Below are positions 21,989-54,635 of a DNA stretch of 64,000 nucleotides, piece by piece. Each line of letters starts with the position of its first letter. The stretch's first letter is position 1. Below the pieces are notes generated by a model. That model saw only the letters and a program-made list of their open reading frames with translations. It had not been told where the DNA came from and made no database searches. This DNA comes from an uncultured delta proteobacterium (GTDB taxonomy: Bacteria; Desulfobacterota; Binatia; UBA9968). The stretch spans positions 736,001 to 800,000 of the forward strand of contig CAWFJP010000003.1 in assembly GCA_963816145.1 (NCBI GenBank). The letters run 5' to 3'. A program made the position numbers and the translations under genes.

Positions 21989-22112
21989 AGTTTATTTGCC
22001 CGTACCGTCACTTAGAAATTTGCCCCGGCGCCGGAAATAATTCCGGCGCCGAGATTGCCTCATACTCAAAGCGATTAAATTGACGGAACCCCGCTGCGGG
22101 AGGGAAAATTCC

Positions 22113-23184: not shown

Positions 23185-24282
23185 ATGAAACATAAATTCA
23201 CAATTCCGTTTAAGAACTCAAAGGTTCAAGGGTTCAATCGGATCTTGTTCGGCGCGCTCTTTCTAACCCTTGAATTCTTGAACCCCTTGAACCTTGAACC
23301 AGCGGCGGCGCAGACGCCGCCTTTTTATCAAGACAAGACCGTCCGCATCGTTGTCGGCTTCACCCCCGGCGGCTTCTACGACCGTTGGGCGCGGCTCCTG
23401 TCGCGCTACATGCCCAAATATATTCCCGGCAATCCTAACTTCGTCGTCCAGAACATGCCCGGCGCCAGCTCGGTGATCGCCGCCAATTATGTTTACAATT
23501 TGTCCAAGGCCGACGGCCTGACGCTGCTGGTGCCGATCAACAGTCTCTATCTCGATCAAGTGGTTGGACGCCAAGAAGTGAAGTTCGACGTGGGCAAATT
23601 CGAATTCATCGGCACTCAAGAGAAGGCGCCGACATTATTGTATTTTCGCGCCGACAGCCCGTTCAAAACCCTGAACGATATTATCAACGCCAAGGAACCG
23701 CCGAAATGCGGCTCGACCGGCACGGCGAGCACCGGCTACCTGCTCGCCAAGATCATGGACGAAGCCTTCAAGGCGAGAATGGCCACGGTCACCGGCTATC
23801 AGGGCGGCAGTGAGATCGACATCGCCGTCGAACGCGGCGAAATCGTCTGCCGCGGCATGGACATTCCGCCGCACTTCGGTCGCGAGCCATTTGACAGCTG
23901 GCACAAGAAGGGCTTTGACCGTCACATTCTCCAAAGCGGGCCCAAGAAAGACCCGCGCATGGGTGACGCGCCGACGCTCTTTGAGTTCATGGATCAATTT
24001 AAGACGCCCGATGTCGTCCGCCGCGCCGCCCGCGTGATTATGGCGAGCGGTGATTTCGGCCGGCCCATGGTCGCCGGCCCCGGCAATCCGCCCGACCGCA
24101 TCAAGATCCTGCGCGATGCCTACGCCAAAGCGATGCGCGATCCGGGGCTCATCGAAGAAGCCAAGAAAAGCCAGATGGACATGGAATATACCTCCGGCGA
24201 AGACCTCCAAACACTGATGAAAGAGCTGATGAATCAGCCGCACGAAGCGATCGAACGGGTGAAAAAAATCCTCGCAGACTGA
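23185..24282 (+). CDS. tctC: TctC/Bug substrate-binding protein (array 2, group A, hairpin leader at 23208-23299)
   Basis: TctC motifs; leader FKNSKVQGFN...LEFLNPLNLEPAAAQ. Confidence 0.88.
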   Translation: MKHKFTIPFKNSKVQGFNRILFGALFLTLEFLNPLNLEPAAAQTPPFYQDKTVRIVVGFTPGGFYDRWARLLSRYMPKYIPGNPNFVVQNMPGASSVIAANYVYNLSKADGLTLLVPINSLYLDQVVGRQEVKFDVGKFEFIGTQEKAPTLLYFRADSPFKTLNDIINAKEPPKCGSTGTASTGYLLAKIMDEAFKARMATVTGYQGGSEIDIAVERGEIVCRGMDIPPHFGREPFDSWHKKGFDRHILQSGPKKDPRMGDAPTLFEFMDQFKTPDVVRRAARVIMASGDFGRPMVAGPGNPPDRIKILRDAYAKAMRDPGLIEEAKKSQMDMEYTSGEDLQTLMKELMNQPHEAIERVKKILAD

Positions 24283-24289
24283 GGTGCTT

Positions 24290-25375
24290 ATGAAATTCAC
24301 AAACCAGTTCAAAGGTTCAACAGTTCAAAGGTTCAAAGTTCTCGGATTTTTAATCTTCTTTGTCGTTGAACTTTTGAACCTTTTGAACCTTGAACCAGCG
24401 TCTGCGCAGCAGACGCCGTTCTATCAAGGTAAAACCATTCGCATCATCGTAGGTCTGACGCCGGGCGGCTTCTACGATCGCTGGGCGCGCCTACTCGCCC
24501 GCTTCATGCCGCTTTATATACCGGGCAATCCCAGCTTCATCGTGCAGAACATGCCGGGCGCGGGATCGATGATCGCAATGAATCATGTCTTCGGCGTCGC
24601 CAAGCCGGATGGGCTCACCGTGGTCATGCCCAACTACGGCGTCTATCTCGATCAGTTAGCAGGACGGAAAGAAGTCCGTTTCGACATCACCAAGGGCTAT
24701 TACATCGGCTCGCCGGAGAAAAGCGATATCGTTCTCTACGCCCGGGCCGACGCCCCATTCAAATCAGTTCAGGACATGAGAAAGCTCGCCGAGCCTGCGA
24801 AGTGCGGCGCCACCGGCACCGCCGGCGCGGATTACCTGATTGCCAAAGTTCTCGACGACACACTTGGCGTGAAAATCAATTCGGTGCTTGGCTATGCCGG
24901 CGGCAGCGAGATCGACATCGCCGTGGAGAAAGGAGAAGTGCTCTGCCGCGGCATGACCATCGCGCCCCATTTCGGCCGCGAGCCTTTCGATAGCTGGCAT
25001 AAGAAGGGCTTCGATCAGCATATCGTTCAAACCGCGGAGAAGCGCGATGGCCGCATCGCTGACGTGCCAACGCTTTACGAAATCTTCGACAAAGAAAACA
25101 CCGCCGATGAGAGCCGGCGGGTCGCCGATGTTATTTTGCGCGGCGGCGACTTTGGCCGCCCCATGCTGGCCGGCCCCGGCACGCCCCTCGACCGCGTGAA
25201 GATACTGCGCGAGGCCTACGTCAAATCAATTAGCAATCCGGAGCTTCTCGCCGAAGCCAAGAAGGCCCGTATGGATGTGGAACCGGTTACTGGCGAACAG
25301 CTGGATGCACTGGCGAAACGAGTCATGAACCAGCCTGCCGGAGTCATCAACAGGGTAAAAAAGATTTTGGAGTAA
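24290..25375 (+). CDS. tctC: TctC/Bug substrate-binding protein (array 3, group A, hairpin leader at 24307-24395)
   Basis: TctC motifs; GAGG RBS; leader FKGSTVQRFK...VELLNLLNLEPASAQ. Confidence 0.88.
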   Translation: MKFTNQFKGSTVQRFKVLGFLIFFVVELLNLLNLEPASAQQTPFYQGKTIRIIVGLTPGGFYDRWARLLARFMPLYIPGNPSFIVQNMPGAGSMIAMNHVFGVAKPDGLTVVMPNYGVYLDQLAGRKEVRFDITKGYYIGSPEKSDIVLYARADAPFKSVQDMRKLAEPAKCGATGTAGADYLIAKVLDDTLGVKINSVLGYAGGSEIDIAVEKGEVLCRGMTIAPHFGREPFDSWHKKGFDQHIVQTAEKRDGRIADVPTLYEIFDKENTADESRRVADVILRGGDFGRPMLAGPGTPLDRVKILREAYVKSISNPELLAEAKKARMDVEPVTGEQLDALAKRVMNQPAGVINRVKKILE

Positions 25376-25411
25376 GCGCTGGAAATCCATCAGCCGTAGG
25401 AACAATGAGTT

Positions 25412-25728
25412 ATGATGAGAGTTGCTCTGTTCGCGGTGTGTTTGTTTCTGCTTTGCGCGTCGAAGGTGCCGGCCCAGACACCCTCTACCAAGGCAAACAA
25501 ATTAAAGTCGTCGTTGGTTTCACCACCGGCGGTTTTTACGATCGCTGGGCCAGGCTGCTGTCCCGATACATGCCGAAACATATCCCGGGTAGCCCTGAGA
25601 GCGGCGAGAATCTGGAAAAGCTCGTCAGCAAGACTATGAACCAACCTGCCGACGTTATTGCGCGGGTCAAGAAACTTCTGGGCAATCAGTTGATTAAACC
25701 ATTTTCGATGGTAATTTTCGCGTTATAA
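25412..25728 (+). pseudogene. tctC remnant (array 4): frameshift after the signal peptide and a large internal deletion
   Basis: Signal MMRVALFAV...AQTP is out of frame with YQGKQIK...GGFYDRWAR...HIPG, which joins directly to the C-terminal SGENLEKL...RVKKLLG. Confidence 0.8.
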
Positions 25729-25752
25729 AAAATTTAGGAGGTTAGAAGCTAG

Positions 25753-26781
25753 ATGTTAAGAGTCTTAGTTATTTTATCGATCCTGATGATTGGCCAAGCG
25801 GCTCACGCCCAGACCCCGTTTTATCAAGGAAAAACCATTACGATCATTGTCGGCACCAAGGCGGGCGACGCCTATGATTTATATCCGCGCATGCTCGCCG
25901 AGTTCATGCCCAAATACATTCCCGGCAACCCCAACATCATTATTCAGAACGTCCCAGGGGCGGCGTCGATGATCGCCGCTAATCAAGTTTATAATATTGC
26001 CAAACCGGACGGCCTGACCCTCGGCGCGATCTATCCGGCGCTCTATTTCGAGCAACTCACGAAAAAGCCCGAGGTAAAATTCGACTGGACCAAATTCGGT
26101 TGGATCGGCAATCCAGTGACATCGAATCATCTCCTCTACATGCGCTCGGATGCGCCGTACAAGTCGATGGACGATATCAAGAACGCCAAGGAGGCTCCGA
26201 AGTGCGGCTCCAACGGCATCACCTCGACGGGCTACTACCTGCCCAAGCTCATGGAGGAAGCCCTCGGCACGAAATTTGACATCGTGTTAGGCTATCAGTC
26301 CGGCCAGGACGTCGACCTTGCCGTCGAGCGCGGCGAGATCGTCTGCCGCGCCTTTACGATCACCGCCTACTTCGCCCGCGAGCCGTTCATTTCCTGGCGC
26401 AAGCGCGGCTTCGTCAACACGCTGATGCAGAGCGGCGCAAAGCGCGATTCTCGCCTCAAAGATGCGCCGACGATCTATGAGCTCATGGATAAATACAAGA
26501 CCAACGCCGCCGGCCGAAGTCTGGCTAAGGTAGTCCTGTCCGCCGGCGAATTTGGCCGCCCCCTTGTCACACCTCCAGGGTTACCCGCGGACCGGCTAAA
26601 GATCTTGCGCGATGCCTTCGATAAAGCGGTCAAAGATCCCGAGCTCTTGGCGACCGCGGAAAAACGGCGCCTGGAAATGGATCCGGAGAACGGCGCGGAA
26701 ATGGAAGCCCTGTCGAAAGAAGTGATGGCAGCGACCCCCGACGTCATCCAGCGCATGCAGAAACTATTAGGCGGTAAGTAG
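25753..26781 (+). CDS. tctC: TctC/Bug substrate-binding protein (array 5, group B)
   Basis: KAGDAYDLYPR, PKCG, AVERGEIVCR; ordinary short signal peptide. Confidence 0.88.
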   Translation: MLRVLVILSILMIGQAAHAQTPFYQGKTITIIVGTKAGDAYDLYPRMLAEFMPKYIPGNPNIIIQNVPGAASMIAANQVYNIAKPDGLTLGAIYPALYFEQLTKKPEVKFDWTKFGWIGNPVTSNHLLYMRSDAPYKSMDDIKNAKEAPKCGSNGITSTGYYLPKLMEEALGTKFDIVLGYQSGQDVDLAVERGEIVCRAFTITAYFAREPFISWRKRGFVNTLMQSGAKRDSRLKDAPTIYELMDKYKTNAAGRSLAKVVLSAGEFGRPLVTPPGLPADRLKILRDAFDKAVKDPELLATAEKRRLEMDPENGAEMEALSKEVMAATPDVIQRMQKLLGGK

Positions 26782-26875
26782 AAATTAACCGCCGGGCGAT
26801 CCCTCAAGGCGGTTGCATCGCAGCAGCCTTGAGGGATATGCTCCGGCCAATTTATCGGCGGGAAGGAGAAACCTT

Positions 26876-27901
26876 ATGTTTTCAACTCTCGTTGTTTTGG
26901 CCGTTCTTGCCTGGAGCTCGACGCTTTTCGCGCAAGCGCCCTTCTACCAAGGTAAGACCATCACCATCGCCGCCGGCACCAAAGCGGGCGATGTCTACGA
27001 TCTCTATCCGCGACTGCTTGCGGAATACATGCCCAAGCATATCCCGGGCAGCCCCAACATCATTGTGCAAAACATCCCGGGCGCGGCTTCGTTGATCGCC
27101 GCCAACCAAGTCTATAATACCGGTAAACCTGACGGATTGTCTCTGGCGGCGATCTATCCGGCGCTCTATTTCGATCAGCTGATCAAGCGACCGGAAGTGA
27201 AATACGACTGGGCAAAATGGCAGTGGCTTGGCAGCCCGGTAAAATCGAACCAGCTGCTCTACATGCGCGCCGACACCCCATACAAATCGATGGATGACAT
27301 CCGCAAAGCGGCGACGGCGCCCAAGTGCGGCTCCACCGGTATCGCTTCTGCAGGCTACTACATACCCAAGCTCTTGGAGGAAGTGCTCGGCACCAAGTTC
27401 GATGTCGTGTCGGGCTACCAATCCGGGCAAGATATCGATCTGGCGGTGGAACGGGGCGAGCTCCAGTGCCGGGCGTTTACCATCACCGCTTACTATGCCC
27501 GGGAGCCGTTTATCTCCTGGCGCAAACGGAATTTCACCAATGTGTTGGTCCAAACCGGCAGCCAGCGCGACGCGCGAATCAAGGACTCGCCGACGATTTA
27601 TGAGTTGATGGATCGATACAAAACCAGCGGGACGGGACGAACCCTGGCGAAAGTAATCCTGGCTTCGGGAGATTTGGGACGCCCCATCGTCGCGCCGCCG
27701 GGTGTGCCGGCGGATCGGATCAAAATGCTGCGAGACGGCTTCGATAAGACTGTCGCCGACCCGGCGTTCCTTGCGGAAGCGGAAAAGCGCCGGCTCGAAA
27801 TCGATCCGACCAAATGGGATGAAATGGAGACGCTGGCAAAAGAAGTCATGACCACACCCGCGGATGTGGTGGCGCGCATGCGCAAGCTCTTGGGCGACTA
27901 A
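26876..27901 (+). CDS. tctC: TctC/Bug substrate-binding protein (array 6, group B)
   Basis: KAGDVYDLYPR; AAGGAG RBS; hairpin ATCCCTCAAGGC...GCCTTGAGGGAT upstream at 26791-26847. Confidence 0.88.
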   Translation: MFSTLVVLAVLAWSSTLFAQAPFYQGKTITIAAGTKAGDVYDLYPRLLAEYMPKHIPGSPNIIVQNIPGAASLIAANQVYNTGKPDGLSLAAIYPALYFDQLIKRPEVKYDWAKWQWLGSPVKSNQLLYMRADTPYKSMDDIRKAATAPKCGSTGIASAGYYIPKLLEEVLGTKFDVVSGYQSGQDIDLAVERGELQCRAFTITAYYAREPFISWRKRNFTNVLVQTGSQRDARIKDSPTIYELMDRYKTSGTGRTLAKVILASGDLGRPIVAPPGVPADRIKMLRDGFDKTVADPAFLAEAEKRRLEIDPTKWDEMETLAKEVMTTPADVVARMRKLLGD

Positions 27902-28005
27902 CGGGCAATCGATCTCGTAGTCACGGGCCTAGCCCGTGGATCTGGCTCGTGTTGCGATTCGCCGCCGGCGATTGTACACGGGAAATAAATAACGGAGGCC
28001 GTTGC

Positions 28006-29308
28006 ATGGTGCCAAGTCGTCTTGATTTTACTCTCTGTGCTGGCTTGCTGGCTCGTTACTGGGTTGGGCGGGGATTACGCATCCAGACTACCTCTTTTAC
28101 AAAGACAGAGACCATCAGACTCGTCGCCGGCACGCCCCGGCGGGGAGCGTCTACGTCTCGAGCGCCGCTATGGTCGCCCAGTTCATCGGCAAATACCACC
28201 GGCGCGCTGAGCGGCGCCTACCTCGCCGGCCTGATCAACCATCGCTGGCTGTTTGTTATTCCTGGCATCGCCATGGGCTACTCTGCGCAGATCATGTTCC
28301 GGAAACGCCTCCAGGTCGCCAATGATATCTATACCATGGCCAAGCCCGACGGTTTGACCATCGGCTCGATCCAACCCGCCCTCTATTTCGATCAATTGGT
28401 CGGCCGCAAGGAAGTGCAGTTCGACTGGAAAAAGTTCACCTGGATCGGCAACACCACGGTGTCCGACTATCTGCTCTACATGCGCAGCGATACGCCATAC
28501 AAAATCCGTCGAAGATATTCGCAAGGCCGCCGTACCGCCCAAATGCGGCGCCGAAGGGACCGGTTCGTCGGCCTACTACCTACCTAGACTGCTGGAAGAA
28601 ACCATCGGCGCGAAGTTCACCGTCGTCACCGGCTACAACTGGCCGGCACCGATGTCGACCTGGCGGATTGGAGCGCGGCGAGGTGCAATGCCGCGCCTTT
28701 ACCATCGCTGCTTTCTTCGCCCGAGAGCCCTTCGTCTCTGCGCAGAGGGAAAGGTTTCGTCCATGTCATCGTACAGATCCGGCAAAAAGCGCGACGCTAA
28801 GCTGCCAGACACGCCGACGTTCGCCAAATCGAATTGCTATAAGCAACTTACTGCGCGGTAGCGTGGTGTTAAGCCTGGTGGTCATCGTCATCGGCACGGT
28901 CGTGACCTTTGTCGATCATCCGGAGTTTCTCTCATCGCCTAGCGCTCTGGGACTACTGATCAACCCGGGCACAACCCTACCACATACTCTCGACGCCGTG
29001 GCCCGCGGCCTCCAAGCGCTGCAAGGCGATGCCATTGTCACTCTCGGTCTGCTCCTACTTATTGCGACGCCGGTGATGCGCGTCGGTATTTCGATCCTCG
29101 CCTTTGTCTACGAACGCGACGCGTTTATACCTTCAACACGGTCACAGTTTTTTGCCTGCGGATCCTTTCTTTCTTCCTCGGCAAAGTCGAAAAGCGTAGC
29201 GCCTCGATCGGCGGTCTCCGGCGAAGCATTCGGAAAAGCTCGGCAATGAGATCAATGGCGCAACCGCCGGACGTCATCGAGCGCATGAAAAAATTATTGG
29301 GAACTTGA
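28006..29308 (+). pseudogene. Frameshifted tctC (array 7) interleaved with TauE/SafE-like and DUF1634-like segments
   Basis: tctC pieces (AKPDGLTIG, ERGEVQCRAF, QPPDVIERMKKLLG) alternate with TTGALSGAYLAG...MGYSA at ~28195-28310 and ISNLLRG...GLLLLIATPVMRV...ERD at ~28825-29197. Confidence 0.75.
28825..29197 (+). pseudogene. DUF1634-like membrane protein segment embedded in array slot 7
   Basis: ISNLLRG-VVLS, AIVTLGLLLLIATPVMRVGISILAFVYERD; no clean start; frameshifted near its end. Confidence 0.65.
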
Positions 29309-29349
29309 AAGATCGGCAACGTCGCCAAAGATTAAAGGAGGTGACCAAT

Positions 29350-30415
29350 ATGAGGATCAAGGACCGTTCGCAAATCTTCGTTGCCGTACGATAGCGCTAT
29401 GGTGGCGCTATGCTAGTCTCTAGCCGGCGTCGAATCTGCATGCCCAGACGCCATTTCTACCAGGGCAAGACGATCACCATCATCGTCAGCACTAAAGCAG
29501 GCGATGTTTACGATCTTTATCCTCGGCTCGTGGCCGAATTCATGCCCAAACATATTCCCGGCAATCCGAATATCATCGTCCAAAACGTGCCCGGCGCCGC
29601 CGGCTTGATCGGCACCAATCAGATCTACAACGTGGCGAAACCGGACGGCCTGACCTTCGGCGCGACCTATCCCGCGCTTTATTTCGAACAGTTGGTCAAG
29701 CGTCCTGAAGCCAAATTCGACTGGAACAAATTCATCTGGATCGGCAGCACGATCAACTCGAACAGTCTCATGTATATGCGCGCCGATACCCCGTATAAGA
29801 CCATCGAAGATGTCCGCACCGCATCGACCCCGCCCAAATGCGGCGCCACCGGCGTTACTTCGTCCGCCTATTACATGCCAAAACTCCTTGGAGTCGGCAT
29901 TTGGCACGAAATTCGAGGTCGTATCGGGATATGTCGCCGGGCAGGATATTGACTTGGCGGTGGAACGCGGCGAAGTTCAGTGCCGAGCTTTTACGGTCAA
30001 CGCGTTTTTCGCCCGCGAGCCGTTCATCACCTGGCGCAAGAAGAATTTCGTTAACGTGCTCTATCAGACCGGCAGCAAGCGCGATGAAAGAATCAAGAAT
30101 GTGCCGTTGTTCAGTGAATTGGCGGATAAATACAAAACGTCGGAAGAAACCAAGAAGCTGGCCAAAGTCGTTCTCGCTTCTGATGAATTCGGCCGTCCCC
30201 TGGTCTTCCCTCCCGGAGTCCCGGCGGACCGGGTTAAGATCATTCGCGACGCTTTTAATAAGACCATCAACGACCCGGAATTACTGGCCGAGGCGAAGAA
30301 ACGCCGACTCGACATCGATCCGGCCACCGGCGAGGAATTGCAGGCTCTCGCCAAGGAAGTCATGACCGCGACCCCGGACATCGTCGAGAAAGTGAAAGGG
30401 TTGATCGGAAAGTGA
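29350..30415 (+). pseudogene. tctC (array 8, group B) with several frameshifts, possibly sequencing errors
   Basis: Halves 29410-29952 and 29810-30415 join at CTTGGAG (one extra G); extra T in CCATTTCTAC; AAGGAGGT RBS before ATG 29350. Confidence 0.75.
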
Positions 30416-30422
30416 CGAAGGG

Positions 30423-31509
30423 ATGGCAATGACGTTCAAAAATTCAAGGGTTCAAAGGTTCAATCGGATTGTTCTTGGATGTTCTTTTTCTGACCCTTGA
30501 ACTTTTGAACCCCTTGAACCTTGAACGGGCGTCTGCGCAGCAGACGCCCTTCTATCAAGGCAAAACGATTCGCATCGTCATCGGCTCGTCCACCGGCGGC
30601 GGTTACGATCTCTGGGCGCGGGTCTTGGCGCGCCACTACGGCAAGTATATTCCAGGTAATCCGACAATTATTGTGCAGAACATGCCAGGCGCGGCATCGA
30701 TCGTCGCGACCAATTATCTTTACAACGTTGCCAAACCCGACGGTTTGACTCTGGGCGCCCTCCTGCCGGCGATCTATTTCGACCAACTCGTCGGTCGCAA
30801 AGAAGTGCAGTTCGATTTCGCCAAGATTCCCTGGATCGGCTCGCCCGAGCAAAACGAAATCATCCACTACATGCGCGCCGATTCACCGTACAAGTCCATC
30901 GAAGATATCCGCAAAGCCAAAGATCCGCCGCGTTGCGGCAGTTCCGGCACCGGCACCACCGGCTTTTATATTCCGCGCCTGCTCGACGAAGTCCTGGGGA
31001 CGAAACACACCGTGGTCGCTGGTTATCCCGGCGGCTCGGAAATCGACTTGGCGGTTGAGCGCGGCGAGGTGCACTGCTGGTCGCCTCTGGTGGCGACCTA
31101 CTTCGGCCGCGAGCCCTACATCAGTTGGCAGAAGAAGGGATTCGTGCGCGTCGTCGTGCAATTCGGCACCAAGCGCGACCCGCGCCTGGCCGACGTACCG
31201 ACGATTTATGAACTCTTGGATCAATACAAAACCCCCGACGCCGGCAAACGGCTCACCCGGGTGATTCTGGTCGCCGCGACCCTCGGCCGGCCCATCGCGG
31301 TAACCCCGGGCACACCGCCCGACCGCATCAAAATGCTGCGCGAGGCCTATCAAAAAACTCTAAAAGATCCCGAGCTCATCACCGAGACCAAACGCCAGCG
31401 CTGGGACATCAATCCGCTGACCGGCGAGGAGATGGAGTCACTGGCCAAAGAAGTTATGGCGCAGCCGAAGGAAGTCATCGAGAGAATGAAATGGGTGTTG
31501 GGGAACTGA
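30423..31509 (+). CDS. tctC: TctC/Bug substrate-binding protein (array 9, group C); +1 frameshift in the hairpin leader (30434-30526), body intact from TTG 30469
   Basis: ATG 30423 frame reads MAMTFKNSRVQRFNRIVLG and then shifts relative to the 36027 leader; STGGGYDLWAR. Confidence 0.8.
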
Positions 31510-31514
31510 ATCAA

Positions 31515-32639
31515 ATGGATTTTGGATTTTCGTCTACGGGGCCGCTTTTGGATTTTCGATTCCGGAACAAAGCGCACGGAAGACGGTGTCACGCAGTAAC
31601 TTTGTTGCTGCTTGTCCTGGCCCTTGAACTTCTGAACCCCTTGAACCTTGAACGGGCGTCAGCGCAGCAGACGCCCTTCTACAAAGGTAAAACCATTACC
31701 ATGGTCGTCTCGTCCACCGCCGGCGGCGGTTACGATCTGTGGGCGCGGCTGGCGGCGCGCTATCTAGGGAAATACATTCCAGGGAATCCGACTATCGTTG
31801 TGCAAAACATGCCGGGCGCGGGCAACATCATCGGCGCCAACTACGTTTACGGCGTCGCCAAGCCCGACGGTTTGACGCTCGGTGCGGTGAACCCAGCGCT
31901 TTATTTCGATCAACTGGTCGGACGATCGGAGGTTAAATTCGATTGGGCCAAGTTCAACTGGATCGGCTCGCCGGAAAAAAACGACATCGTTTCCTACATG
32001 CGCGCCGACACTCCGATCAAAAACATTGATGACTGGCGCAATGCCAAGGAGCCGCCCAAATGCGGCAGCACCGGCACTGGCAGCACCGGCCATTACATCC
32101 CGCGCCTACTCGAAGAAACCCTCGGCATCAAGACCCAGATCGTCAGTGGCTATCCCGGTGCGCCGGACATCGAGCTGGCCATCGAGCGCGGCGAAGTGTT
32201 TTGCTGGTCACCGCTCAAGGCCACCTACTTCGGCCGCGAGCCCTATCGGCGCTGGCATAAAACCGGTTACGTGCGGGTTCTGGTCCAAACCGGCGCCAAG
32301 CGCGATCCACGGCTGAAGGACACGCCGACGCTGGATGAATTGATGCAGCAATACAAATCTCCCGAGCCGGCCCGCCGGCTCGCCAAGGTGATTCTCACCG
32401 CCGCCACCTTGGGCCGTCCCGTCGGCACCGCGCCAGGCGTTCCGGCGGATCGGGTAAAGATCCTGCGCGACGCCTACGCCAAAGCCATCGCCGATCCCGA
32501 GCTGCTCGCCGAAGCCGCCAAACAAAACTGGGAAGTCGACGCTACCCACGGCGACGAGCTGCAAGCGTTGTCGAAAGAAGTCATGGCTCAGCCCAAAGAA
32601 ATCATCGAGCGCATGAAGTGGGTGCTCGGGCGGGAATGA
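31515..32639 (+). CDS. tctC: TctC/Bug substrate-binding protein (array 10, group C); start uncertain
   Basis: TAGGGYDLWAR; leader contains TTTTGGA repeats (MDFGF...LDFRF) and the TTGAAC arm (LELLNPLNLER). Confidence 0.85.
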   Translation: MDFGFSSTGPLLDFRFRNKAHGRRCHAVTLLLLVLALELLNPLNLERASAQQTPFYKGKTITMVVSSTAGGGYDLWARLAARYLGKYIPGNPTIVVQNMPGAGNIIGANYVYGVAKPDGLTLGAVNPALYFDQLVGRSEVKFDWAKFNWIGSPEKNDIVSYMRADTPIKNIDDWRNAKEPPKCGSTGTGSTGHYIPRLLEETLGIKTQIVSGYPGAPDIELAIERGEVFCWSPLKATYFGREPYRRWHKTGYVRVLVQTGAKRDPRLKDTPTLDELMQQYKSPEPARRLAKVILTAATLGRPVGTAPGVPADRVKILRDAYAKAIADPELLAEAAKQNWEVDATHGDELQALSKEVMAQPKEIIERMKWVLGRE

Positions 32640-32685
32640 TATCAATTTTGGATTCTCGATTTTAGATTTTGGATTGACGGGCTCC

Positions 32686-33763
32686 ATGCATCGACTATTG
32701 CTCTTGACGACAAAGTTTTTCGCATTCTTCTTCGTCCTGACCCTCGAATTCTTGAACCCCTTGAACCTTGAACCGGCGGCGGCGCAAACGCCGCCCTTCT
32801 ATCAAGGCAAAACACTCAAGATCGTGGTCGGCTCGGCATCCGGGGGCGGTTACGATCTTTGGGCGCGTTTACTGGCGCTCCATATCGGCAAACATATTCC
32901 CGGCCACCCGACCGTGGTCGTGCAGAATCTGCCGGGAGCCGGCGGTTTGGTTGCCGGGAATTTTGTTTATGGTCTAGCCAAGCCTGACGGCCTGACCATC
33001 GGTGCGTTCAACCCGGCGCTCTATTTCGAACAACTGGTCGGCAAGCCGGAGAGCAAGTTTGATTGGACCAAGTTCAGCTGGATCGGCTCGCCCGAGAAAA
33101 ACGACGCTTTGCATTACATCCGCGCCGACTCGCCGTATAAAACCATCGACGATTTGCGCAATGCCAAGGAGCCGGCCAAATGCGGCAGCACCGGCGGCGG
33201 CACCACCGCCCACTATTTTCCCCGGCTGCTCGAAGACACCCTGGGCATCAAAACCACCCAGGTCACCGGCTATCAGGGCGGGTCGGAAATCGATCTCGCC
33301 GTCGAACGCAACGAAATCATCTGCTGGACGCCGCTGATCGCGACCTACTTCGGCCGCGAGCCTTACAAGCGCTGGCACAAGACCGGTTTCGTTCGCGTCG
33401 TCGTCCAGACCGGCGACAAACGCGACGAGCGCTTGAAGGATGTACCAACGCTCACCGAACTGATGCAGCAGTACAAAACTCCAGAGGCCAGCCGCCGGCT
33501 CGCCAAAGTGGTCTTGACCGCCGCCAACCTCGGCCGCCCCATCGCCGGCCCGCCGCGCCTACCGGCGGAACTGCTAAAAACTTTACGCGACGCCTACGCC
33601 AAATCGATGAAAGACCCCGAGCTCCTCGCCGAAGCCGCCAAGCGCGGCTGGGAAGTCGACCCCCATACCGGCGCCGAACTCGAGACGTTGGCGAAGGAAG
33701 TCATCAACCAGCCCAAGGAAGTGATTGAGCATTGAGCGGATGAAATGGGTGCTGGGAAACTAG
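32686..33763 (+). CDS. tctC: TctC/Bug substrate-binding protein (array 11, group C); a 7-bp duplication truncates the last ~8 codons
   Basis: ASGGGYDLWAR; ATTGAGC-ATTGAGC gives a stop at 33735, and the original tail RMKWVLGN* ends at 33763. Confidence 0.82.
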
Positions 33764-33770
33764 AGCCGCC

Positions 33771-33903
33771 AATTTTGGATTTTAGATTTTGGATTTTGGA
33801 TTAGGGGAAAAGAGCGTGAAGAAAAGATCTTGGATGCGATGGCTAGATTCTTCTTCCGATAATCCAAAATCGAAAATCCAAAAGCAGCCCCGCGGACCAA
33901 AAT
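33771..33903. repeat. Heptamer palindrome (ATTTTGG)n...(AATCCAA)n straddling the start of the 33816 gene
   Basis: AATTTTGGATTTTAGATTTTGGATTTTGGATTAGGGGA...AATCCAAAATCGAAAATCCAAAA. Confidence 0.8.
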
Positions 33904-34876
33904 GGGGATGGCTTGTTGCCCTCGGCGTCGCGTTCGCAATGGGTGGCGCCGTAGGCGACGCGCAGCAGCAGGCAAAGGTGTTTAAGATTGGCTGGCTCGC
34001 TATCGGTAGCGCCACTTCAATCTCCAGGTATCAGGCGTTCCGGCGTAGCCTCCCTGATCTCGGCTACGTTGAGGGCAAGAATATCTCATTCGAGTTTCGA
34101 TCGGCAGACAACAAGCTCGCCTCGCTTCCCGCGCTAGCTGATGAGTTGGCCCGTCTCAATGTTGACGTAATCGTCACACGCGGCACGCCTGAAGCCCTAG
34201 CTCTCAAAAACGCTACCAGGACAATCCCCATCGTTTTTTACGATGTGACGGATCCAATAGCGGCGGGGCTGGTTGACAGCTTGGCCCGGCCTGGTGGAAA
34301 CATCACGGGGTTTTCCGGCATGGAGGCAGTGTTGGCGGGCAAACGATTGGAGTTACTCAAGGACACCCTTCCAAAACTCTCCCGCGTTGCGGTGCTGTGG
34401 AATCCGCAGGATCTTAGCTCCGCGCAACAATGGAAAGAAAGCCAACTGCCGGCACGAGCACTGGGGCTGCAACTTCATTCCATGGAAGTAAGCAGCGCCG
34501 ATAAATACGAGAACGCGTTCAGAGAGGCAATGAAAGCGCGGAGTGGCGCTCTCGCTGTGATAGCTGGAGCGGCTGGAAGACTCTAACGGACAGAAGATCG
34601 CAGATCTGGCAACAAAAACTCGGCTGCCAGCGATATACCCTCGTACTACTTTTATCGACAGCGGCGGGTTGATGTCCTACGGACGCGACCGAGAAGAGGG
34701 CTGTCAAGCGGGTACCCATTATGGTCGACAAGATTCTCAAGGGAACCAAGCCCGCCGACATTCCTGTCGAGCAGCCAATGAAGTTTGATTTGCCAATTAA
34801 TCTAAAAACCGCCAAGGCACTTGGACTGACGATTCCACCGCTTGTGCTCACGCGGGCGACGAAGGTGATCAAGTAG
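33816..34876 (+). pseudogene. ABC_sub_bind substrate-binding protein, frameshifted near 34570 and 34700
   Basis: DSLARPGGNITG in the 5' ORF; GGLMSYG and [17 protein letters not shown] continue in shifted frames to TAG 34876. Confidence 0.8.
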
Positions 34877-34899
34877 GCGCGAGGCTTGAGGCGAAAGGC

Positions 34900-35906
34900 G
34901 TGAGCAAGATGATGAGAGGAAAGCCGATGATAAGCAGAATCGCCTGCCGACTGTTGGCTGCTTCCATTCCGCTTTTTGTTTCTCAAACCGACGCACAGCA
35001 GCCGGCAAAGGTTGCAAAGATTGGCTGGCTCGCCGTGCGGCCGGCGTCTGCTGCTTTCGCGATCGAGTCATTTCAGCGAGAATTCGGCAAACTCGGCTAT
35101 GTTGACGGGAAGAACATAGTTTTCGAGTATCGATACGCTGAGGGTAATCTCGACCGACTCCCTGCGCTAGCTGACGAACTTGTTCGTCTTAAAGTTGATG
35201 TGCTCATCGCGCCCAATACTCCGGCCGCGTTAGCCGCTAAGAACGCTACCAGATCTATCCCCATCGTTTTTATAGACGTAACCGACCCCATCGCGGCTGG
35301 GCTGATCGATAGCCTGGCGCGGCCTGGCGGGAATATCACGGGGTTTACTACCATTTGAGCAGTGCTGGCCGGCAAAAGACTTGAGTTGCTAAAAGAAACC
35401 GTTCCCAAGCTCTCCCGCGTCGGGGTGCTGTGGGATCCACAAGGACCAAGCTCTGGGCAGGTTGGAAAGAAAGCCAACTGCCGGCAAGAGCTCTGGGCTT
35501 GCAACTTCATTCCATGGAAGTCAGCAGCGCTGACAAATACGATGCAGTGTTCAAGGAGGCAATGAAAGCGCGCGTCGGCGCTGTCGCCTGGATGGCGTCC
35601 CCGCTGGGCGACCTAAATCAAAGGGATACGGTCGAACTAGCGAAGAGATATCGCCTGCCGACAATTTATAGTCGGCAACCGGTTGTCGAAAATGGCGGCC
35701 TGATGTCTTACGGTCCCGACCGGGACGAACCCTTCAGGCGCACCGCCGTTTTTGTCGACAAGATTTTGAAGGGAACTCATCCATCCGACATACCAGTCGA
35801 GCAGCCAACCAAGTTCGAATTGGCGATCAATTTAAAAACTGCCAAAACACTCGGCCTGACTATTCCACCGCTCATGCTCACGCGGGCGACGAAGGTGATC
35901 AAGTAA
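34900..35906 (+). pseudogene. ABC_sub_bind substrate-binding protein with an in-frame TGA (35356) and a frameshift (~35460)
   Basis: ORFs 34900-35358, 35362- and 35430-35906 reconstruct one tandem paralog of 33816-34876. Confidence 0.8.
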
Positions 35907-36026
35907 ATGCAGACAACAGGCACACAGGCAATAGGCAATAGTTAGAACTTCTCATTGCACTCAGCCCAGACTCCACGGTATTCATAACCCGCGCGATTGC
36001 TCAAAATAACCATGAGGTGATTCTGG

Positions 36027-37121
36027 ATGCGTGGAATAAAAGATTTGTTCAAGAGTTCAAAAGTTCAAGGGTTCAATCGGATTCTTCTCGGTATTCTTTT
36101 TCTGACCCTTGAACTTTTGAACCCTTTGAACCTTGAACCGGCGTCTGCGCAGCAGACGCCCTTCTACCAAGGCAAAACCATCACATGGATCGTCGGCAGC
36201 AAGGCGGGCGATGCTTATGATCTTTATCCGCGCCTGCTGGCCGAGTATCTGCCCAAGTATATTCCCGGCAATCCCAATATTATCATTCAGAACGTCGGCG
36301 GCGCGGCCTCGCTGATCGCGGCCAACCAAGTGTACAGCGTCGCCAAGCCCGACGGATTGACTCTCGGCGCGATCTATCCGGCGCTTTATTTCGATCAACT
36401 GGTGAAACGGCCGGAAGTAAAATACGACTGGAATAAATTTTCCTGGATCGGCAGCCCGGTGAGTTCCAACCACATGATGTACATGCGCGCGGATACACCC
36501 TTTAAAACCATCGACGACCTGCGCACCGCCGCGCAGCCGCCGAAATGCGGCTCCAGCGGGGTCAATTCGACCGGCTACTACATTCCCAAACTGATGGAAG
36601 AAGCGATCGGCGCCAAGATCGAAATGGTCGCCGGCTATCCGGGTGGCCAGGATATCGAACTTGCGGTCGAGCGCGGCGAATTAGTGTGCCGATCGTTTAC
36701 GATCACAACGTTCCATAGCCGCGAGCCGTTTTTTACCTGGCGCAAGAAAAACTTCGTCCGCGTGCTCTACCAAACTGGCACCAAGCGAGACCCGCGCTTG
36801 AAAGACGTGCCGACAATGTATGAGATAATGGATCGCTACAAGACACCGGAATCGGTGCGCAAGCTCGCCAAGGTAATCCTGATCGCCAGTGATTTGGGCC
36901 GGCCTATCGTGGCGCCGCCGGGCGTGCCTCCAGCGCGCTTGAAAACCATCCGCGAGGCCTTCAACAAAGCGGTCGCTGACCCGGCCTTCTTAGCCGACGC
37001 GGACAAGCGCAAGCTTGAAATCGATCCATCGTCTTGGGAAGAGATGGAATCCTTGGCCAAGGAGGCGATGGCGACGCCGCCTGATGTTGTCGATAGAATG
37101 AAAAAGATTCTCGGCATGTGA
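36027..37121 (+). CDS. tctC: TctC/Bug substrate-binding protein (array 12, group B, hairpin leader at 36047-36138)
   Basis: KAGDAYDLYPR; leader FKSSKVQGFNRILLG...LELLNPLNLEPASAQ. Confidence 0.88.
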   Translation: MRGIKDLFKSSKVQGFNRILLGILFLTLELLNPLNLEPASAQQTPFYQGKTITWIVGSKAGDAYDLYPRLLAEYLPKYIPGNPNIIIQNVGGAASLIAANQVYSVAKPDGLTLGAIYPALYFDQLVKRPEVKYDWNKFSWIGSPVSSNHMMYMRADTPFKTIDDLRTAAQPPKCGSSGVNSTGYYIPKLMEEAIGAKIEMVAGYPGGQDIELAVERGELVCRSFTITTFHSREPFFTWRKKNFVRVLYQTGTKRDPRLKDVPTMYEIMDRYKTPESVRKLAKVILIASDLGRPIVAPPGVPPARLKTIREAFNKAVADPAFLADADKRKLEIDPSSWEEMESLAKEAMATPPDVVDRMKKILGM

Positions 37122-37145
37122 CGTAATCCAAAAATGAGGTCTTTC

Positions 37146-38243
37146 ATGACGCAACGAACGAAACATCCGTTCAAAAGTTCAAACGTTCAAACGCTCAAGG
37201 TTCTCGGGCTCGTGATTTTTTCCGTCGTTGAACTTTTGAATCCTTTGAACCTTGAACGGGCGTCTGCCCAGCAGACGCCTTTCTATCAAGGCAAAACCAT
37301 CCGGATCATCGTCGGCAATCTGCCGGGCGACACCCATGACATCTTCGCCCGCGCTTACTCGCGCCACATGGGCAAACATATTCCCGGCTTCCCTAACATT
37401 GTCGTGCAAAACATGCCCGGAGCCGGCGGCATGATCGCGGCCAACCATGTCTACAACGTCGCGAAACCGGATGGACTGACACTCGGCTCCCCGTCCCCGG
37501 CGCTTTATTACGCGCAACTGGTTGGCCGGAAAGAGGTCAAATTCGATTGGCCCAAGTTCAACTTCATCGGTTCGCCGGAGCGCAATGGTCACTTGTTATT
37601 CATGCGCTCAGACTCGCCCTACAAAACTCTCGACGACATCCGGAAAGCCAAGGAGCCGCCCAAGTGTGCCGCTACGGGAGTTGGCACCAGCGGCCACGAC
37701 GTGCCCAAACTGTTCGACGAGATGATCGGCTTGAAGTTCAACCTGATCACCGGCTATCCCGGCGGCGCCGAAATGGATTTGGCCATCGAACGTGGGGAAG
37801 CGGTATGCCGCGCCATTACCGTGGCGGCGTTCTTCGCCCGAGAGCCATTTGTCACCTGGTACAAAACCGGTGTCGTGCGTGTGCTTCTGCAAACCTCGCG
37901 GCAGAGAAATCCGAAAATTCCCGATGTGCCGACTTTGTTCGAGCTCATGGAGCAGTACAAAACGCCGGAGATCAAGCGCCGCCAGGTGCTAGTCTATCTC
38001 GGCGTCGGCGGCTTCGGCGCCTGGCCGATTCTCTCCACACCCGGAATACCCGCGGAGCGCGTGACGACTCTCCGCGAAGGGTTCAGCAAAACCATGAAAG
38101 ATCCGGATTTCTTGGCGGAAGCGAAAAAAGCCGGTTGGGAGATCCGCCCCACCAGCGGCGAAGATTTGCAAGCGCTAGCGAAGGAAGTCATCGACCAGCC
38201 ACCGGAAGTGGTCGAGTGGCTAAAAAAATTATTGGCGAAATAA
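37146..38243 (+). CDS. tctC: TctC/Bug substrate-binding protein (array 13, group D, hairpin leader at 37169-37257)
   Basis: LPGDTHD; GAGGT RBS before ATG 37146. Confidence 0.88.
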   Translation: MTQRTKHPFKSSNVQTLKVLGLVIFSVVELLNPLNLERASAQQTPFYQGKTIRIIVGNLPGDTHDIFARAYSRHMGKHIPGFPNIVVQNMPGAGGMIAANHVYNVAKPDGLTLGSPSPALYYAQLVGRKEVKFDWPKFNFIGSPERNGHLLFMRSDSPYKTLDDIRKAKEPPKCAATGVGTSGHDVPKLFDEMIGLKFNLITGYPGGAEMDLAIERGEAVCRAITVAAFFAREPFVTWYKTGVVRVLLQTSRQRNPKIPDVPTLFELMEQYKTPEIKRRQVLVYLGVGGFGAWPILSTPGIPAERVTTLREGFSKTMKDPDFLAEAKKAGWEIRPTSGEDLQALAKEVIDQPPEVVEWLKKLLAK

Positions 38244-38262
38244 ATTTACTGAGAGAGGCTCT

Positions 38263-39360
38263 ATGGCACTTCAATTAATCACGTCGTTCAAAAATTCAAA
38301 GGTTCAAACGTTCAATTTTCTCGGATTCTTGCTCCTCTCCGTCGTTGAGCTTTTGAACCCCTTGAACCTTGAACGGGCGTCTGCCCAGCAGGCGCCTTAT
38401 TATCAAGGCAAAACCATCCGCGTCGTCGTCGGCTATCAGGCCGGCGACTCGCACGACCAGTGGGCGCGCACCTACACGCGTTATCTCGGCAAATTCATTC
38501 CAGGCAACCCCACCTTCCTGGTGCAAAACATGCCCGGCGCCGGCGGCATGATCGCCGCCAACTACATCTTCAACGTCGCCAAGCAGGATGGCTTGACCAT
38601 GGGCACCATCGGCGGCGCGCTTTACTTCGCCCAATTGATTGGCCGCAGCGAAGCAAAATACGACTGGAACAAATTCACCTGGATCGGCACGCCGGAGAAA
38701 AGCGGCTTTCTCGTCTTTATGCGCACCGACGCGCCCTATAAGACTCTCGACGACCTGCGCACTACCAACGATCCGCCGCGCTGCTCGGCCACCGGCGTCG
38801 GCAGCAGCGGTTACGACATTCCGCGCGTTCTGGAAGACACGGTCGGAATGAAGTTTAAAGTCATCAGCGGTTACCCCGGCGGTGCCGATCAAGATTTGGC
38901 AATGGAGCGCGGCGAAGTGCAATGCCGAGCATTTACCATCGACGCTTTCTTTGGCCGCGAACCCTTTCCCACCTGGGTGAAAAAGGGCTTTGTCCGCGTC
39001 ATCATACAGATGGAACGCAAGCGCCACCCCAAGCTGCAGGACGTGCCGACGCTCTGGGAGCTGATGGATCAATACAAAGTGCCGGAAGCGAAGCGGCGGC
39101 TCGCCACGGTTTATTTGAACAGCGGCCTGTTCGGTTCTCGCCCCATCGTCTCGACACCCGGCCTCACCGCGGAGCAAGCGAAAATTCTCCGCGAAGCCTA
39201 CGTCAAGACGCTCAAAGATCCGGAATTCCTGGACGAGATCACCAAGCGCGGTTGGACGGTCGATGCCGTGAGCGGCGAAGATCTGCAGGTTCTAGCTAAG
39301 GAAGTCACGACCCAGCCGCCGGAAGTCATCGATTGGCTGAAAAAACTGTTGACCAAATAA
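38263..39360 (+). CDS. tctC: TctC/Bug substrate-binding protein (array 14, group D, hairpin leader at 38286-38374)
   Basis: QAGDSHDQWAR, PRCSATG, AMERGEVQCR. Confidence 0.88.
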   Translation: MALQLITSFKNSKVQTFNFLGFLLLSVVELLNPLNLERASAQQAPYYQGKTIRVVVGYQAGDSHDQWARTYTRYLGKFIPGNPTFLVQNMPGAGGMIAANYIFNVAKQDGLTMGTIGGALYFAQLIGRSEAKYDWNKFTWIGTPEKSGFLVFMRTDAPYKTLDDLRTTNDPPRCSATGVGSSGYDIPRVLEDTVGMKFKVISGYPGGADQDLAMERGEVQCRAFTIDAFFGREPFPTWVKKGFVRVIIQMERKRHPKLQDVPTLWELMDQYKVPEAKRRLATVYLNSGLFGSRPIVSTPGLTAEQAKILREAYVKTLKDPEFLDEITKRGWTVDAVSGEDLQVLAKEVTTQPPEVIDWLKKLLTK

Positions 39361-39390
39361 GCCGAAGTAAGAAGGCGAACGAGGTCGGTC

Positions 39391-40476
39391 TTGAAAATCA
39401 TTTTGGTCAAAAGTCCAAAGGTTCAAAGGTTCAACGTTCTCGGGTTCTTGATCCTCTCCGTGCTTGAACTTTTGCACCCTTTGAACCTTGAACGAGCGTC
39501 AGCACAGACGCCCTACTATCAAGGCAAAACCATCCGGTTCATCGTCGGCTACCAACCCGGTGACAATCACGACCAGTGGTCGCGCGCCTATGCGCGCTTC
39601 ATGGGCAAGTATCTTCCCGGCAATCCCAACTTTCTCGTGCAAAATATGCCGGGCGCCGGCGCGATGATCGCGGCCAATCATATCTACAACATGACCAAGC
39701 CGGACGGCTTGACGCTCGGCACCCTCGGCGGCGCCTTGATCATGGCGCAGATCACCGGCCGCAAGGAAGTGCAATTCGATTGGTCTAAGTTCGGTTGGAT
39801 CGGCACGCCGTACCGCGCCGGTCATGTGCTGTTCATGCGCAGCGATACGCCGGTCAAGACCTTGGAGCAACTGCGCCAGACCAACGACCCGCCGCGCTGT
39901 TCCGCCACCGGCGTTGGCAGCACCGGCTATGACATTCCGCGCTTGCTCGAAGACGCCTTCGGCTTCAAATTCAAAGTCATCAGCGGCTACCCAGGTGGCG
40001 CCGATCAAGACCTGGCGATGGAAAGAAACGAAGTGCAGTGCCGCGCCATCACCACCGACGGTTTCTTCGGCCGCGAGCCGTTTATTACATGGTACAAGAA
40101 AGGCTTTGTGCGTATCTGGCTGCAAACCGAAAAGCAGCGCCACCCCAAAGCCGCTGACGCGCCGACGATTTTCGAGTTAATGGATCAATTCAAGATCGCC
40201 GATACCAAGCGGCGCTTGGTGCATACTTACTTGGGCTTGTGGGGCTTTGGCTCGATGCCGGTGATCACTTCGCCAGGATTACCCGCCGAGCGCCTGACGA
40301 TGCTGCGCGACGCTTGGGCCAAGACCTTCGCCGATGCGGAATTTCAAGAGGACCTCGCCAAGCGAAACTGGGAAGCCCGGCCGGTATTCGGTGAAGAACT
40401 GCAAAATCTCGCCAAAGATGTAGTCAATCAGCCGCCGGAAGTCGCCAGCGCGCTGAAACGAATTCTCGGTCAATAA
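39391..40476 (+). CDS. tctC: TctC/Bug substrate-binding protein (array 15, group D, hairpin leader at 39405-39493)
   Basis: QPGDNHDQWSR; GAGGT before TTG. Confidence 0.88.
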   Translation: MKIILVKSPKVQRFNVLGFLILSVLELLHPLNLERASAQTPYYQGKTIRFIVGYQPGDNHDQWSRAYARFMGKYLPGNPNFLVQNMPGAGAMIAANHIYNMTKPDGLTLGTLGGALIMAQITGRKEVQFDWSKFGWIGTPYRAGHVLFMRSDTPVKTLEQLRQTNDPPRCSATGVGSTGYDIPRLLEDAFGFKFKVISGYPGGADQDLAMERNEVQCRAITTDGFFGREPFITWYKKGFVRIWLQTEKQRHPKAADAPTIFELMDQFKIADTKRRLVHTYLGLWGFGSMPVITSPGLPAERLTMLRDAWAKTFADAEFQEDLAKRNWEARPVFGEELQNLAKDVVNQPPEVASALKRILGQ

Positions 40477-54508: not shown

Positions 54509-54624
54509 GTTCTAATCGTTTCAACCGTTCAAGCCGTTTCGAACCGCTTCCGGAAAAAGACTGCACAAGCCCAAAATTCGGATAATTGTTTTTTGAACGG
54601 CTTGAACATTTAGAACCACTTGAC
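54509..54624. repeat. GTTCAA/TTGAAC palindrome (9-bp period) between convergent genes
   Basis: GTTCTAATCGTTTCAACCGTTCAAGCCG...TTGAACGGCTTGAACATTTAGAAC. Confidence 0.75.
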
Positions 54625-54635
54625 CTCGCTTATTC

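Follow-up and report, generated by a model that had tools for sequence, protein, structure and literature searches.

A dispersed hexamer repeat in the leaders of tctC genes of an uncultured Binatia bacterium may serve both as Sec signal and as structured element

The tctC array and its leader cassettes

The sequence analysed here, called the window in the following, comprises 64,000 nucleotides of the genome of an uncultured bacterium of the Binatia (assembly GCA_963816145.1) and corresponds to positions 736001-800000 of contig CAWFJP010000003.1 (C3; other C-numbers likewise denote contigs of this genome, and coordinates given without a contig are those of the window). The source genome spans 7.82 Mb in 31 contigs with a G+C content of 56.4%. 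The window harbors a tctB-(tctC)12-tctA array, in which twelve tctC genes for solute-binding proteins of tripartite tricarboxylate transporters (TTT) are arranged on one strand in the 18.6 kb between tctB and tctA, with a few further open reading frames (ORFs) interspersed among them. All five ORFs of the window that were tested for tctC identity matched Pfam family PF03401 with 51.5-62.2 bits (cut-off 27).

Of the twelve tctC leaders in this array, nine carry a motif built from the hexamer GTTCAA and its complement TTGAAC. Seven leaders have two arms, a GTTCAA array (left arm) and a TTGAAC array (right arm), which are separated by a loop of about 30 nt, and two have TTGAAC hexamers with no left array. 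The pattern GTTCAA-N2-4-GTTCAA was found 30 times in the window, while 0.04 occurrences were expected and none of 100 shuffled sequences reached 30. The original prediction, made from the letters of the window, had described seven leaders with about four hexamers per arm and two others (31624 and 32743) with the right arm only. The latter two were confirmed and the arrays of the former are present, but four exact hexamers in each arm were found only at 24307 and 36047, the other five leaders having two to three exact hexamers besides degenerate ones. A second, GC-rich hairpin (hairpin 2), which the original prediction had missed, is located directly after the right arm and covers the cleavage-site codons. 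The features of the array are as follows:

21497..21988, + strand: tctB, head of the array
22080..23177, + strand: tctC paralog with an ordinary, repeat-free leader, sister of the repeat-bearing gene at 23185
23185..23325, + strand: tctC leader cassette; ATG at 23185, GAGG upstream; left arm ~23208-23237, right arm 23270-23299
23304-23321, + strand: hairpin 2 of the 23185 leader, at the cleavage site; GGCGGCG/CGCCGCC, then TTTTTAT
24290..24420, + strand: tctC leader cassette; ATG at 24290, GAGGTG upstream; left arm 24307-24336, right arm 24366-24395, four hexamers each
24398-24416, + strand: hairpin 2 of the 24290 leader
25753-26781 and 26813-27901, + strand: two tctC paralogs with ordinary leaders
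30420..30552, + strand: tctC leader cassette; left arm 30434-30463, right arm 30497-30526, hairpin 2 just downstream
31491..31681, + strand: tctC leader with right arm only (~31624-31653) and hairpin 2
32674..32801, + strand: tctC leader with right arm only (~32743-32773) and hairpin 2 (GGCGGCG/CGCCGCC)
36027..36166, + strand: tctC leader cassette; ATG at 36027; left arm 36047-36076, right arm 36109-36138, four hexamers each; hairpin 2 ~36140-36160
37134..37285, + strand: tctC leader cassette; ATG at 37134 or 37146; left arm 37169-37198, right arm 37228-37257, hairpin 2 ~37258-37279
38263..38402, + strand: tctC leader cassette; ATG at 38263; left arm 38286-38315, right arm 38345-38374; hairpin 2 with one U-G pair
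39391..39518, + strand: tctC leader cassette; TTG at 39391, GAGG upstream; left arm 39405-39434, right arm 39464-39493, short hairpin 2
40581..42080, + strand: tctA, end of the array

Counting exact hexamers only, the two-arm arrays extend over positions 23224-23299, 24307-24395, 30450-30526, 36047-36138, 37169-37257, 38302-38374 and 39421-39493, and the right-arm-only arrays over 31641-31653 and 32752-32773. Since the orthologues of both right-arm-only genes have four left hexamers, their left arms were lost in this genome. The 39391 leader is the most degenerate copy (fold z -2.0). In the 30434 leader the two arms are in different frames and the in-frame start is TTG at 30469; the ATG-led frame reads MAMTFKNSRVQRFNRIVLG.. 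and then meets a stop, which points to a 1-nt indel in the loop. A similar 1-nt indel separates the ATG-led left arm from the right arm in the leader at C13:67071. The orthologues of these two leaders are intact.

By a tblastn search with the mature TctC domain (at least 200 residues aligned), 100 tctC paralogs were counted in the genome. Ten of them have at least two TTGAAC hexamers in the leader, namely the nine of the window and C13:67071. The remaining 90 possess ordinary leaders of about 20-30 residues with A-x-A directly before the mature start Q.PFYQGK. The cassette is therefore present in 9 of 12 array genes versus 1 of 88 elsewhere (Fisher p = 1e-9, the paralogs being non-independent samples).

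Several observations were made on the surroundings and on the assembly. The TTT locus is unusual, since the twelve paralogs between tctB and tctA may all depend on a single membrane unit. It has amidohydrolase genes on both sides (20459-21481, 42270-43934 and 44043-45041). Within the tctC array, three ORFs at 33789-35906 match ABC_sub_bind (PF04392). Two of them are parts of a split or frameshifted gene, since 34900-35358 corresponds to the N-terminal half of the profile and 35430-35906 to its C-terminal half. At 30434-30526, at C13:67071-67158 and in several further leaders, 1-nt indels break the frame and leave the hairpins intact. They are located within leaders or in the stretch from right arm to mature domain and could be long-read assembly errors or real decay. 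In short-read contigs from four soil or wetland DNA runs, a high-depth 1-nt difference at position 30510 was traced to other repeat copies. Short-read contigs end at the leader cassettes (23207-23271, 24516-24526, 37267-37279, 38325-38382 and 39412-39476), as expected for a multi-copy repeat. The stretch occurs in 20 sequencing runs of 18 studies; for 35950-39550, no RNA run was among those listed.

Translation and folding of the leader cassettes

In the window, GAGG-type sites were found 3-7 nt upstream of the start codons, and the starts are located 17-35 nt before the left arm. A set of 46 unique leaders was compiled from several species. In 35 of these, a start codon (ATG in 33 cases) precedes the left arm in frame and no stop follows up to the cleavage site; six have no upstream in-frame start, three run off the locus and two are without left arm. 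The left arm is read as the n-region FK.S.VQ.F and the right arm as the c-region ELLNPLNLE, followed by A-S/A-A / Q, as had been claimed. The proposal that the repeat provides the n- and c-regions of the signal peptide thus holds for most leaders, but not for 30434 with its arms out of frame.

The spacing of the hexamers differs between the arms. From hexamer to hexamer it is 8-8-8 in the left arm of 32 of the 46 leaders and 8-9-7 in the right arm of 37, both summing to 24 nt; 27 free four-hexamer arms elsewhere in the genome mostly show 8-7-8, 7-8-8 or 7-8-7, and only two of these are 8-8-8. The hexamer TTGAAC contains TGA in one frame, so that with 8-8-8 spacing a stop appears in every frame, while an 8-9-7 array leaves exactly one frame open, which is the frame used. 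The right arm has therefore been re-spaced to suit coding and, as a consequence, no longer mirrors the left arm perfectly.

The translations were inspected for a basic n-region, an h-region of at least about 10 residues and small residues at positions -3 and -1. The leaders have the corresponding sequence features of a Sec signal cleaved by signal peptidase I: K/R in FK.S.VQ.F(N/K)(R/V), a hydrophobic core such as ILLGILFLTL, and ASA, AAA or xFA right before Q..PFYQGK, which is the same junction as in the 90 ordinary paralogs. In the examples compared, repeat leaders are about 39-48 residues long versus 20-30 residues in ordinary paralogs. A Tat or lipoprotein signal was rejected, as neither an RR motif nor a junction Cys was present among the listed leaders. 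Judged by its translation, the leader peptide would still work as a Sec signal.

A search with the leader only (residues 1-44) against 5.8 billion proteins returned 23 matches, all of them TctC; PF03401 was present in 20, and in the three without Pfam entry the leader is followed by the mature N-terminus of TctC. In this genome only two binding-protein genes beyond tctC may read an arm as n-region. At C29:352181-353281 (NMT1-like) and C29:26081-27103 (SBP_bac_6) an array follows right after a possible ATG and would read as a basic n-region (GSKRSSRSNRSKR and RSKFKVQGSR) before a hydrophobic core, the starts being ambiguous. Another gene, which encodes about 375 residues and has three copies (C19:18462, C20:21119 and C30:448608), contains ..LEPLNLER.. 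in the middle of the protein, encoded by TTGAAC hexamers.

In order to separate nucleotide from peptide conservation, codons were analysed in 26 leaders that had been found by a degenerate peptide pattern and are thus free of nucleotide ascertainment, with the codon usage of the 100 tctC mature domains as reference. Rare synonymous codons are fixed at the hexamer sites, so that the check suggested in the original prediction, whether synonymous positions keep TTGAAC/GTTCAA, had a positive outcome:

CTT (Leu): 8% of its amino acid in tctC; 26/26 and 17/22 at hexamer sites
TTG (Leu): 24% in tctC; 25/26 and 26/26 at hexamer sites
GTT (Val): 14% in tctC; 23/23 at hexamer sites
TCA (Ser): 6% in tctC; 23/24 at hexamer sites
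CAA (Gln): 42% in tctC; 23/23 at hexamer sites
GAA (Glu): 49% in tctC; 26/26 and 25/26 at hexamer sites

Codons spanning the spacers vary in their amino acid (S/R/G, K/R/T/N and G/A/T/R/V/K). When the 46 leaders are aligned, hexamer columns show an identity of 0.9-1.0, compared with 0.4-0.6 in spacers, loop and upstream sequence. For 24 orthologue pairs chosen from a tree of 64 array genes, 1985 of 3213 four-fold sites of the mature domain were identical (0.62); since orthologues differ at 38% of these sites, the identity of the hexamers is not due to mere recency. The leader hexamers are held at synonymous sites, that is, at the nucleotide level. Selection on the peptide only, with FK.S.VQ.F and ELLNPLNLE being needed e.g. 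as a special sorting signal and the DNA repeat as a by-product, would account for the high conservation of both motifs over the 46 leaders. It is contradicted by the rare synonymous codons fixed exactly at the hexamers while spacer amino acids vary, and the same arrays are found in hundreds of non-coding places; this explanation is thus regarded as highly improbable.

RNA folding was predicted for about 120 nt of each leader. All seven two-arm leaders gave a long interrupted hairpin of -32.6 to -57.2 kcal/mol, with z values from -2.0 to -8.9 and six of the seven at or below -3.85, as the original prediction had suggested for these leaders. The two right-arm-only leaders (z -0.4 and -1.3) form no long hairpin. 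For hairpin 2, a perfect stem of at least 7 pairs was found in 7 of 10 repeat leaders versus 2 of 90 ordinary paralogs of this genome, and the mean z of the region was -3.2 versus -0.45. RNAalifold yielded no consensus on 49 hairpin-2 segments, which is attributed to palindrome classes lying in different registers; in place of a consensus helix, stems were counted and compared with synonymous recoding. Across species, 36 of 47 unique leaders have a perfect hairpin-2 stem of at least 6 pairs, while 200 replicates of random synonymous recoding of the same peptides gave such stems in 4% (on average 1.9 of 47, never more than 5). The site holds different palindromes, which encode ASAQQTP, ASAQTP, AAAQTPP or xFAQANFY, and compensatory pairs were observed within the classes. 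Hairpin 2 looks like a case of repeated re-invention, not like one conserved helix. Rfam searches returned two matches, both far under the gathering threshold (25.8 vs 55.2 bits and 23.2 vs 65 bits).

A GC-rich stem early in each gene of a tight tandem array resembles an intrinsic terminator or attenuator, in which hairpin 2 and the T-rich PFY codons would stop transcription unless ribosomes translate through, and at 23304-23331 such a stem is indeed followed by TTTTTAT. Only one of the nine window hairpins passes the T-run rule, however, and terminator-like sites in the region (30 vs 27.4 expected) show no excess, which makes a role of this kind very unlikely.

The dispersed repeat family and the history of the cassette

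The arms belong to a dispersed repeat, as the original prediction had supposed. In a whole-genome search 280 arms of at least two hexamers were detected, which group into 228 elements: 92 with GTTCAA only, 87 with TTGAAC only, 38 inverted pairs and 11 other arrangements, i.e. 179 solo arms versus 38 inverted pairs. Intergenic positions account for 169 of the 228 elements, while about 18% of the DNA is non-coding; the genes were called with a crude purpose-made caller (6644 genes, 82% coding, starts over-extended). Two subfamilies were distinguished. The first has a 7-8-nt period with purine spacers and is the leader type; the second has a 9-nt period (CGTTCAANN) and often flanks a GC-rich palindrome. 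Four free sites in the window had been listed as copies of the leader motif, which is correct for 865, whereas the other three belong to the 9-nt-period sister subfamily:

865..893: free solo arm of the 7-8-nt subfamily, 4 x TTGAAC, intergenic
4181..4288: free element of the 9-nt subfamily with a GC-rich palindrome between its two arms
54509..54625: degenerate free element of the 9-nt subfamily
62092..62158: free solo arm of the 9-nt subfamily, 4 x TTGAAC after TGGAAC variants

A general link of the repeat to genes for exported proteins was not supported, the leader being confined to TctC and the free copies being mostly intergenic and orientation-neutral.

Three-hexamer arrays were present in all 18 sampled genomes of the genus (17 of 17 without one unpublished genome), while a reversed-pattern control gave 0. 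Elsewhere in the order, a single match each was found in 2 of 12 genomes of other families.

Further observations concern the composition and neighbourhood of the family. In a composite element distinct from the leader type, 9-nt arrays bracket a conserved GC-rich palindrome (CCTCCCCCGCG.CGCGGGGGAGG); it is located at 4181-4288 of the window and at C3:870142, C5:237769, C8:35157 and C27:39952. GTTCCA/TGGAAC arrays adjoin GTTCAA arrays at C1:2880-2920, C18:131590-131630 and 62092-62110 of the window, so that the hexamer family has variants. The Y1 transposase family PF01797 has seven matches in the genome, including C29:53351, C16:103640 and C14:561347. The open frame measures about 165 residues in three of them and about 320-330 in three others; none of the seven adjoins the listed GTTCAA/TTGAAC arrays, for which alone the flanks were examined, and no cognate transposase of the repeat was identified. 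At C15:183500-188000 and C15:201000-206500, a tyrosine-recombinase gene (SAM_4 + Phage_integrase) is located beside a 23S-rRNA-IVP (four-helix-bundle) gene. Both IVP genes are flanked by inverted 9-nt-period arrays, the units being 85.6% identical over 506 nt, and a LexA and an ImuB-like gene are adjacent. A general link between IVP genes and arrays was rejected, as eight other IVP matches are not beside arrays.

The leader nucleotide pattern was found in at least 10 of 30 other genomes of the genus and in at least 2 of 5 genomes of a second genus of the family, these counts being lower bounds because the pattern misses one hairpin-2 class, and in none of 87 genomes from 25 further genera of the order. 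A maximum-likelihood tree of mature domains was calculated for 43 of the 100 paralogs (at least 43% identity) and 4 outgroups. On this tree the ten carriers require 6 changes, and constraining them to a single clade was 346 log-likelihood units worse (approximately unbiased test, p = 1e-28). Several carriers have repeat-free sisters, either neighbouring or on other contigs. In the syntenic arrays of six other species the orthogroups are collinear and have kept their cassette status; 40 carriers were present among 64 array genes with an open mature frame of at least 260 residues (shorter, frameshifted and edge-cut matches were left out), and again 6 changes were needed. As orthogroups keep their status across species, the transfers from paralog to paralog predate the species. 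They were probably made by conversion between neighbours, and the array is not being shuffled now. The nine cases of the window are thus no independent events but go back to one leader module, older than the species and present in 10 of 100 paralogs, which is inherited within TctC in two genera.

These results also bear on the idea, raised in the original prediction, that the palindrome is a recombination joint. It survives as a historical statement only, since the carriers are polyphyletic. In its stronger, integron-like form, binding-domain cassettes would be shuffled behind a common leader at the palindrome; the same-strand tandem array with one imperfect palindrome per gene and the discordant histories of leader and mature domain would fit. 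Gene order and cassette status are collinear across 7 species, however, and none of the 11 matches to the tyrosine recombinase family PF00589 in the genome is on contig C3, so that this mechanism hardly deserves credence.

Interpretation and comparison with known systems

The explanation favoured here, with a probability of roughly 0.55, is that a lineage-specific dispersed repeat was domesticated in the 5′ coding region of tctC genes, where it doubles as Sec signal and structured element. It builds on the repeat family, the translation of the arms in most copies, the synonymous constraint, hairpin 2, the polyphyly of the carriers together with their conservation among orthologues, and the restriction to TctC. 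The GTTCAA/TTGAAC repeat would have been built into the leaders of a subset of tctC genes such that the left array (8-8-8) provides the basic n-region, the loop (~30 nt) the hydrophobic core, the right array (8-9-7) the long c-region, and hairpin 2 the A-x-A site and the first mature residues. The cassette would be older than the species of the genus, would have been passed between diverged paralogs of one tandem array and would since then have been kept at the nucleotide level. The two adjacent hairpins, starting 17-35 nt after the start codon, may act as a structured element, most likely in the mRNA, which may tune translation or transcript stability of individual array genes.

Several results weigh against this domestication. 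Two genes of the window have lost the left arm and with it the long hairpin and yet stay open. In six of the 46 leaders the left arm is not preceded by any in-frame start, and 1-nt indels occur in two leaders of this genome. The c-region of 13 residues with two Glu is unusually long for a signal peptide. The missing consensus for hairpin 2 belongs here as well, as does the lack of any difference in folding between the sense strand and its antisense counterpart (22 of 44 each way), which makes RNA-level and DNA-level roles inseparable here. The strand of solo arms relative to the neighbouring genes is unbiased (23:24 and 35:28), and a gene start within 150 nt downstream is about equally frequent for the two orientations (15 vs 13 of 45 and 16 vs 14 of 46); this orientation neutrality of the free copies fits a selfish or DNA-level element. 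Finally, the paralogs and orthologues are non-independent samples, and the hexamers could owe their integrity to gene conversion from the many free copies and need not have a function in the leader.

The last point leads to the main rival explanation, in which a mobile or REP-like (repetitive extragenic palindromic) remnant landed in one ancestral leader, the peptide merely tolerates the hexamers, and these are kept without structural function by gene conversion among the leaders and from hundreds of free copies. The numerous, intergenic and orientation-neutral free copies are in line with such concerted evolution of a selfish repeat, and so are the polyphyly of the trait, the location of all carriers but one in a single tandem array, where conversion is easy, and the loss of the left arm without closure of the gene. 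On the other hand, the leader-specific spacings 8-8-8 and 8-9-7 are rare or absent among the 27 free four-hexamer arms, so that conversion from free copies should break the frame. Hairpin 2 is outside the free repeat and yet kept in several palindromic versions, and the loop diverges freely while the arms do not. This explanation is considered unlikely, although it has to be taken seriously.

Alternatively, the arrays may be bound as duplex by a lineage-specific regulator or nucleoid protein, in which case the leaders would contain two inverted intragenic operator arrays. The conserved unit is the hexamer and not the spacer, free arrays are located close to gene starts in either orientation, no asymmetry between sense and antisense folds was found, and in the two genes without a left arm to pair with, the right arm has largely been preserved. 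A period of 7-9 bp appears tight for repeated binding on one face of the duplex, a candidate binding protein was not found, and the palindrome of hairpin 2 is kept while its sequence changes, which points to pairing over sequence recognition. Binding to the duplex is rather doubtful, but it is a second rival to be reckoned with. Slightly less doubtful, and still speculative, is the wider proposal that the hexamer arrays are recognition sites of a lineage-specific array-binding factor on RNA or DNA and that the leader is a dual-coding switch. If true, this switch, besides encoding a Sec signal, would use its two hairpins and its arrays to tie the expression of a dozen alternative binding proteins on one TctBA channel to a regulon with the same arrays at hundreds of other gene starts.

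Under the favoured domestication of the repeat, the leaders are of interest since signal peptides are usually thought to be only loosely constrained in sequence. Here, a nucleic-acid repeat dictates the n- and c-regions and a palindrome dictates the cleavage site, and the compromise has left traces in the form of fixed rare codons and a spacing shifted to dodge TGA. The array may thus be used as a natural test case for how far a second code can over-write an export signal, how a selfish or regulatory repeat turns into a protein part, and how leaders move as modules between paralogs. Moreover, the results draw attention to a so far uncharacterised repeat system found throughout a genus of the Binatia, which are an uncultured lineage of soil bacteria, and to an unusual TTT locus with twelve binding proteins between tctB and tctA. 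In the literature searched, supplements aside, no description was found of signal-peptide n- and c-regions formed by a repeat or of a palindrome over the cleavage site.

In-frame palindromic repeats and coding palindromes are already known. REP elements and bacterial interspersed mosaic elements (BIMEs) are short, abundant, mostly intergenic and orientation-neutral palindromes that form hairpins, and the repeat described here shares these properties in that it can form hairpins as well. It differs from them in its unit, a four-hexamer array with 1-3-nt spacers, and in that solo arms outnumber pairs.

Rickettsia palindromic elements (RPEs) and other intragenic repeats of the miniature inverted-repeat transposable element type form in-frame fusions, according to the available text of a review (PMC10969869), in which the terms 'signal peptide' and 'signal sequence' do not occur. 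As with RPEs, a dispersed palindromic family is also found inside ORFs and translated as part of the protein. According to the same text RPEs are located inside many unrelated genes, whereas here certain translation is confined to the leaders of one family; an RPE-like insertion into many unrelated genes was rejected, as 23 of 23 leader matches were TctC. A further difference from RPEs is that the repeat, its spacing adapted to coding, contributes a defined functional part of the protein, namely n- and c-region of a signal peptide.

Palindromic amphipathic repeat coding elements (PARCELs), as described in the available part of PMC2996958, are long tandem domain repeats in mature surface proteins. 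They have in common with the tctC leaders a coding sequence with dyad symmetry and the question of selection at the DNA/RNA level versus the peptide level; in contrast to them, a single leader cassette and a genome-wide intergenic repeat are found here. With the ordinary Sec signals of TctC/Bug proteins, finally, the repeat leaders share the cleavage junction, the basic start and the hydrophobic core, but they are about twice as long, and the DNA encoding them, fixed at its synonymous sites, folds into a pair of hairpins.

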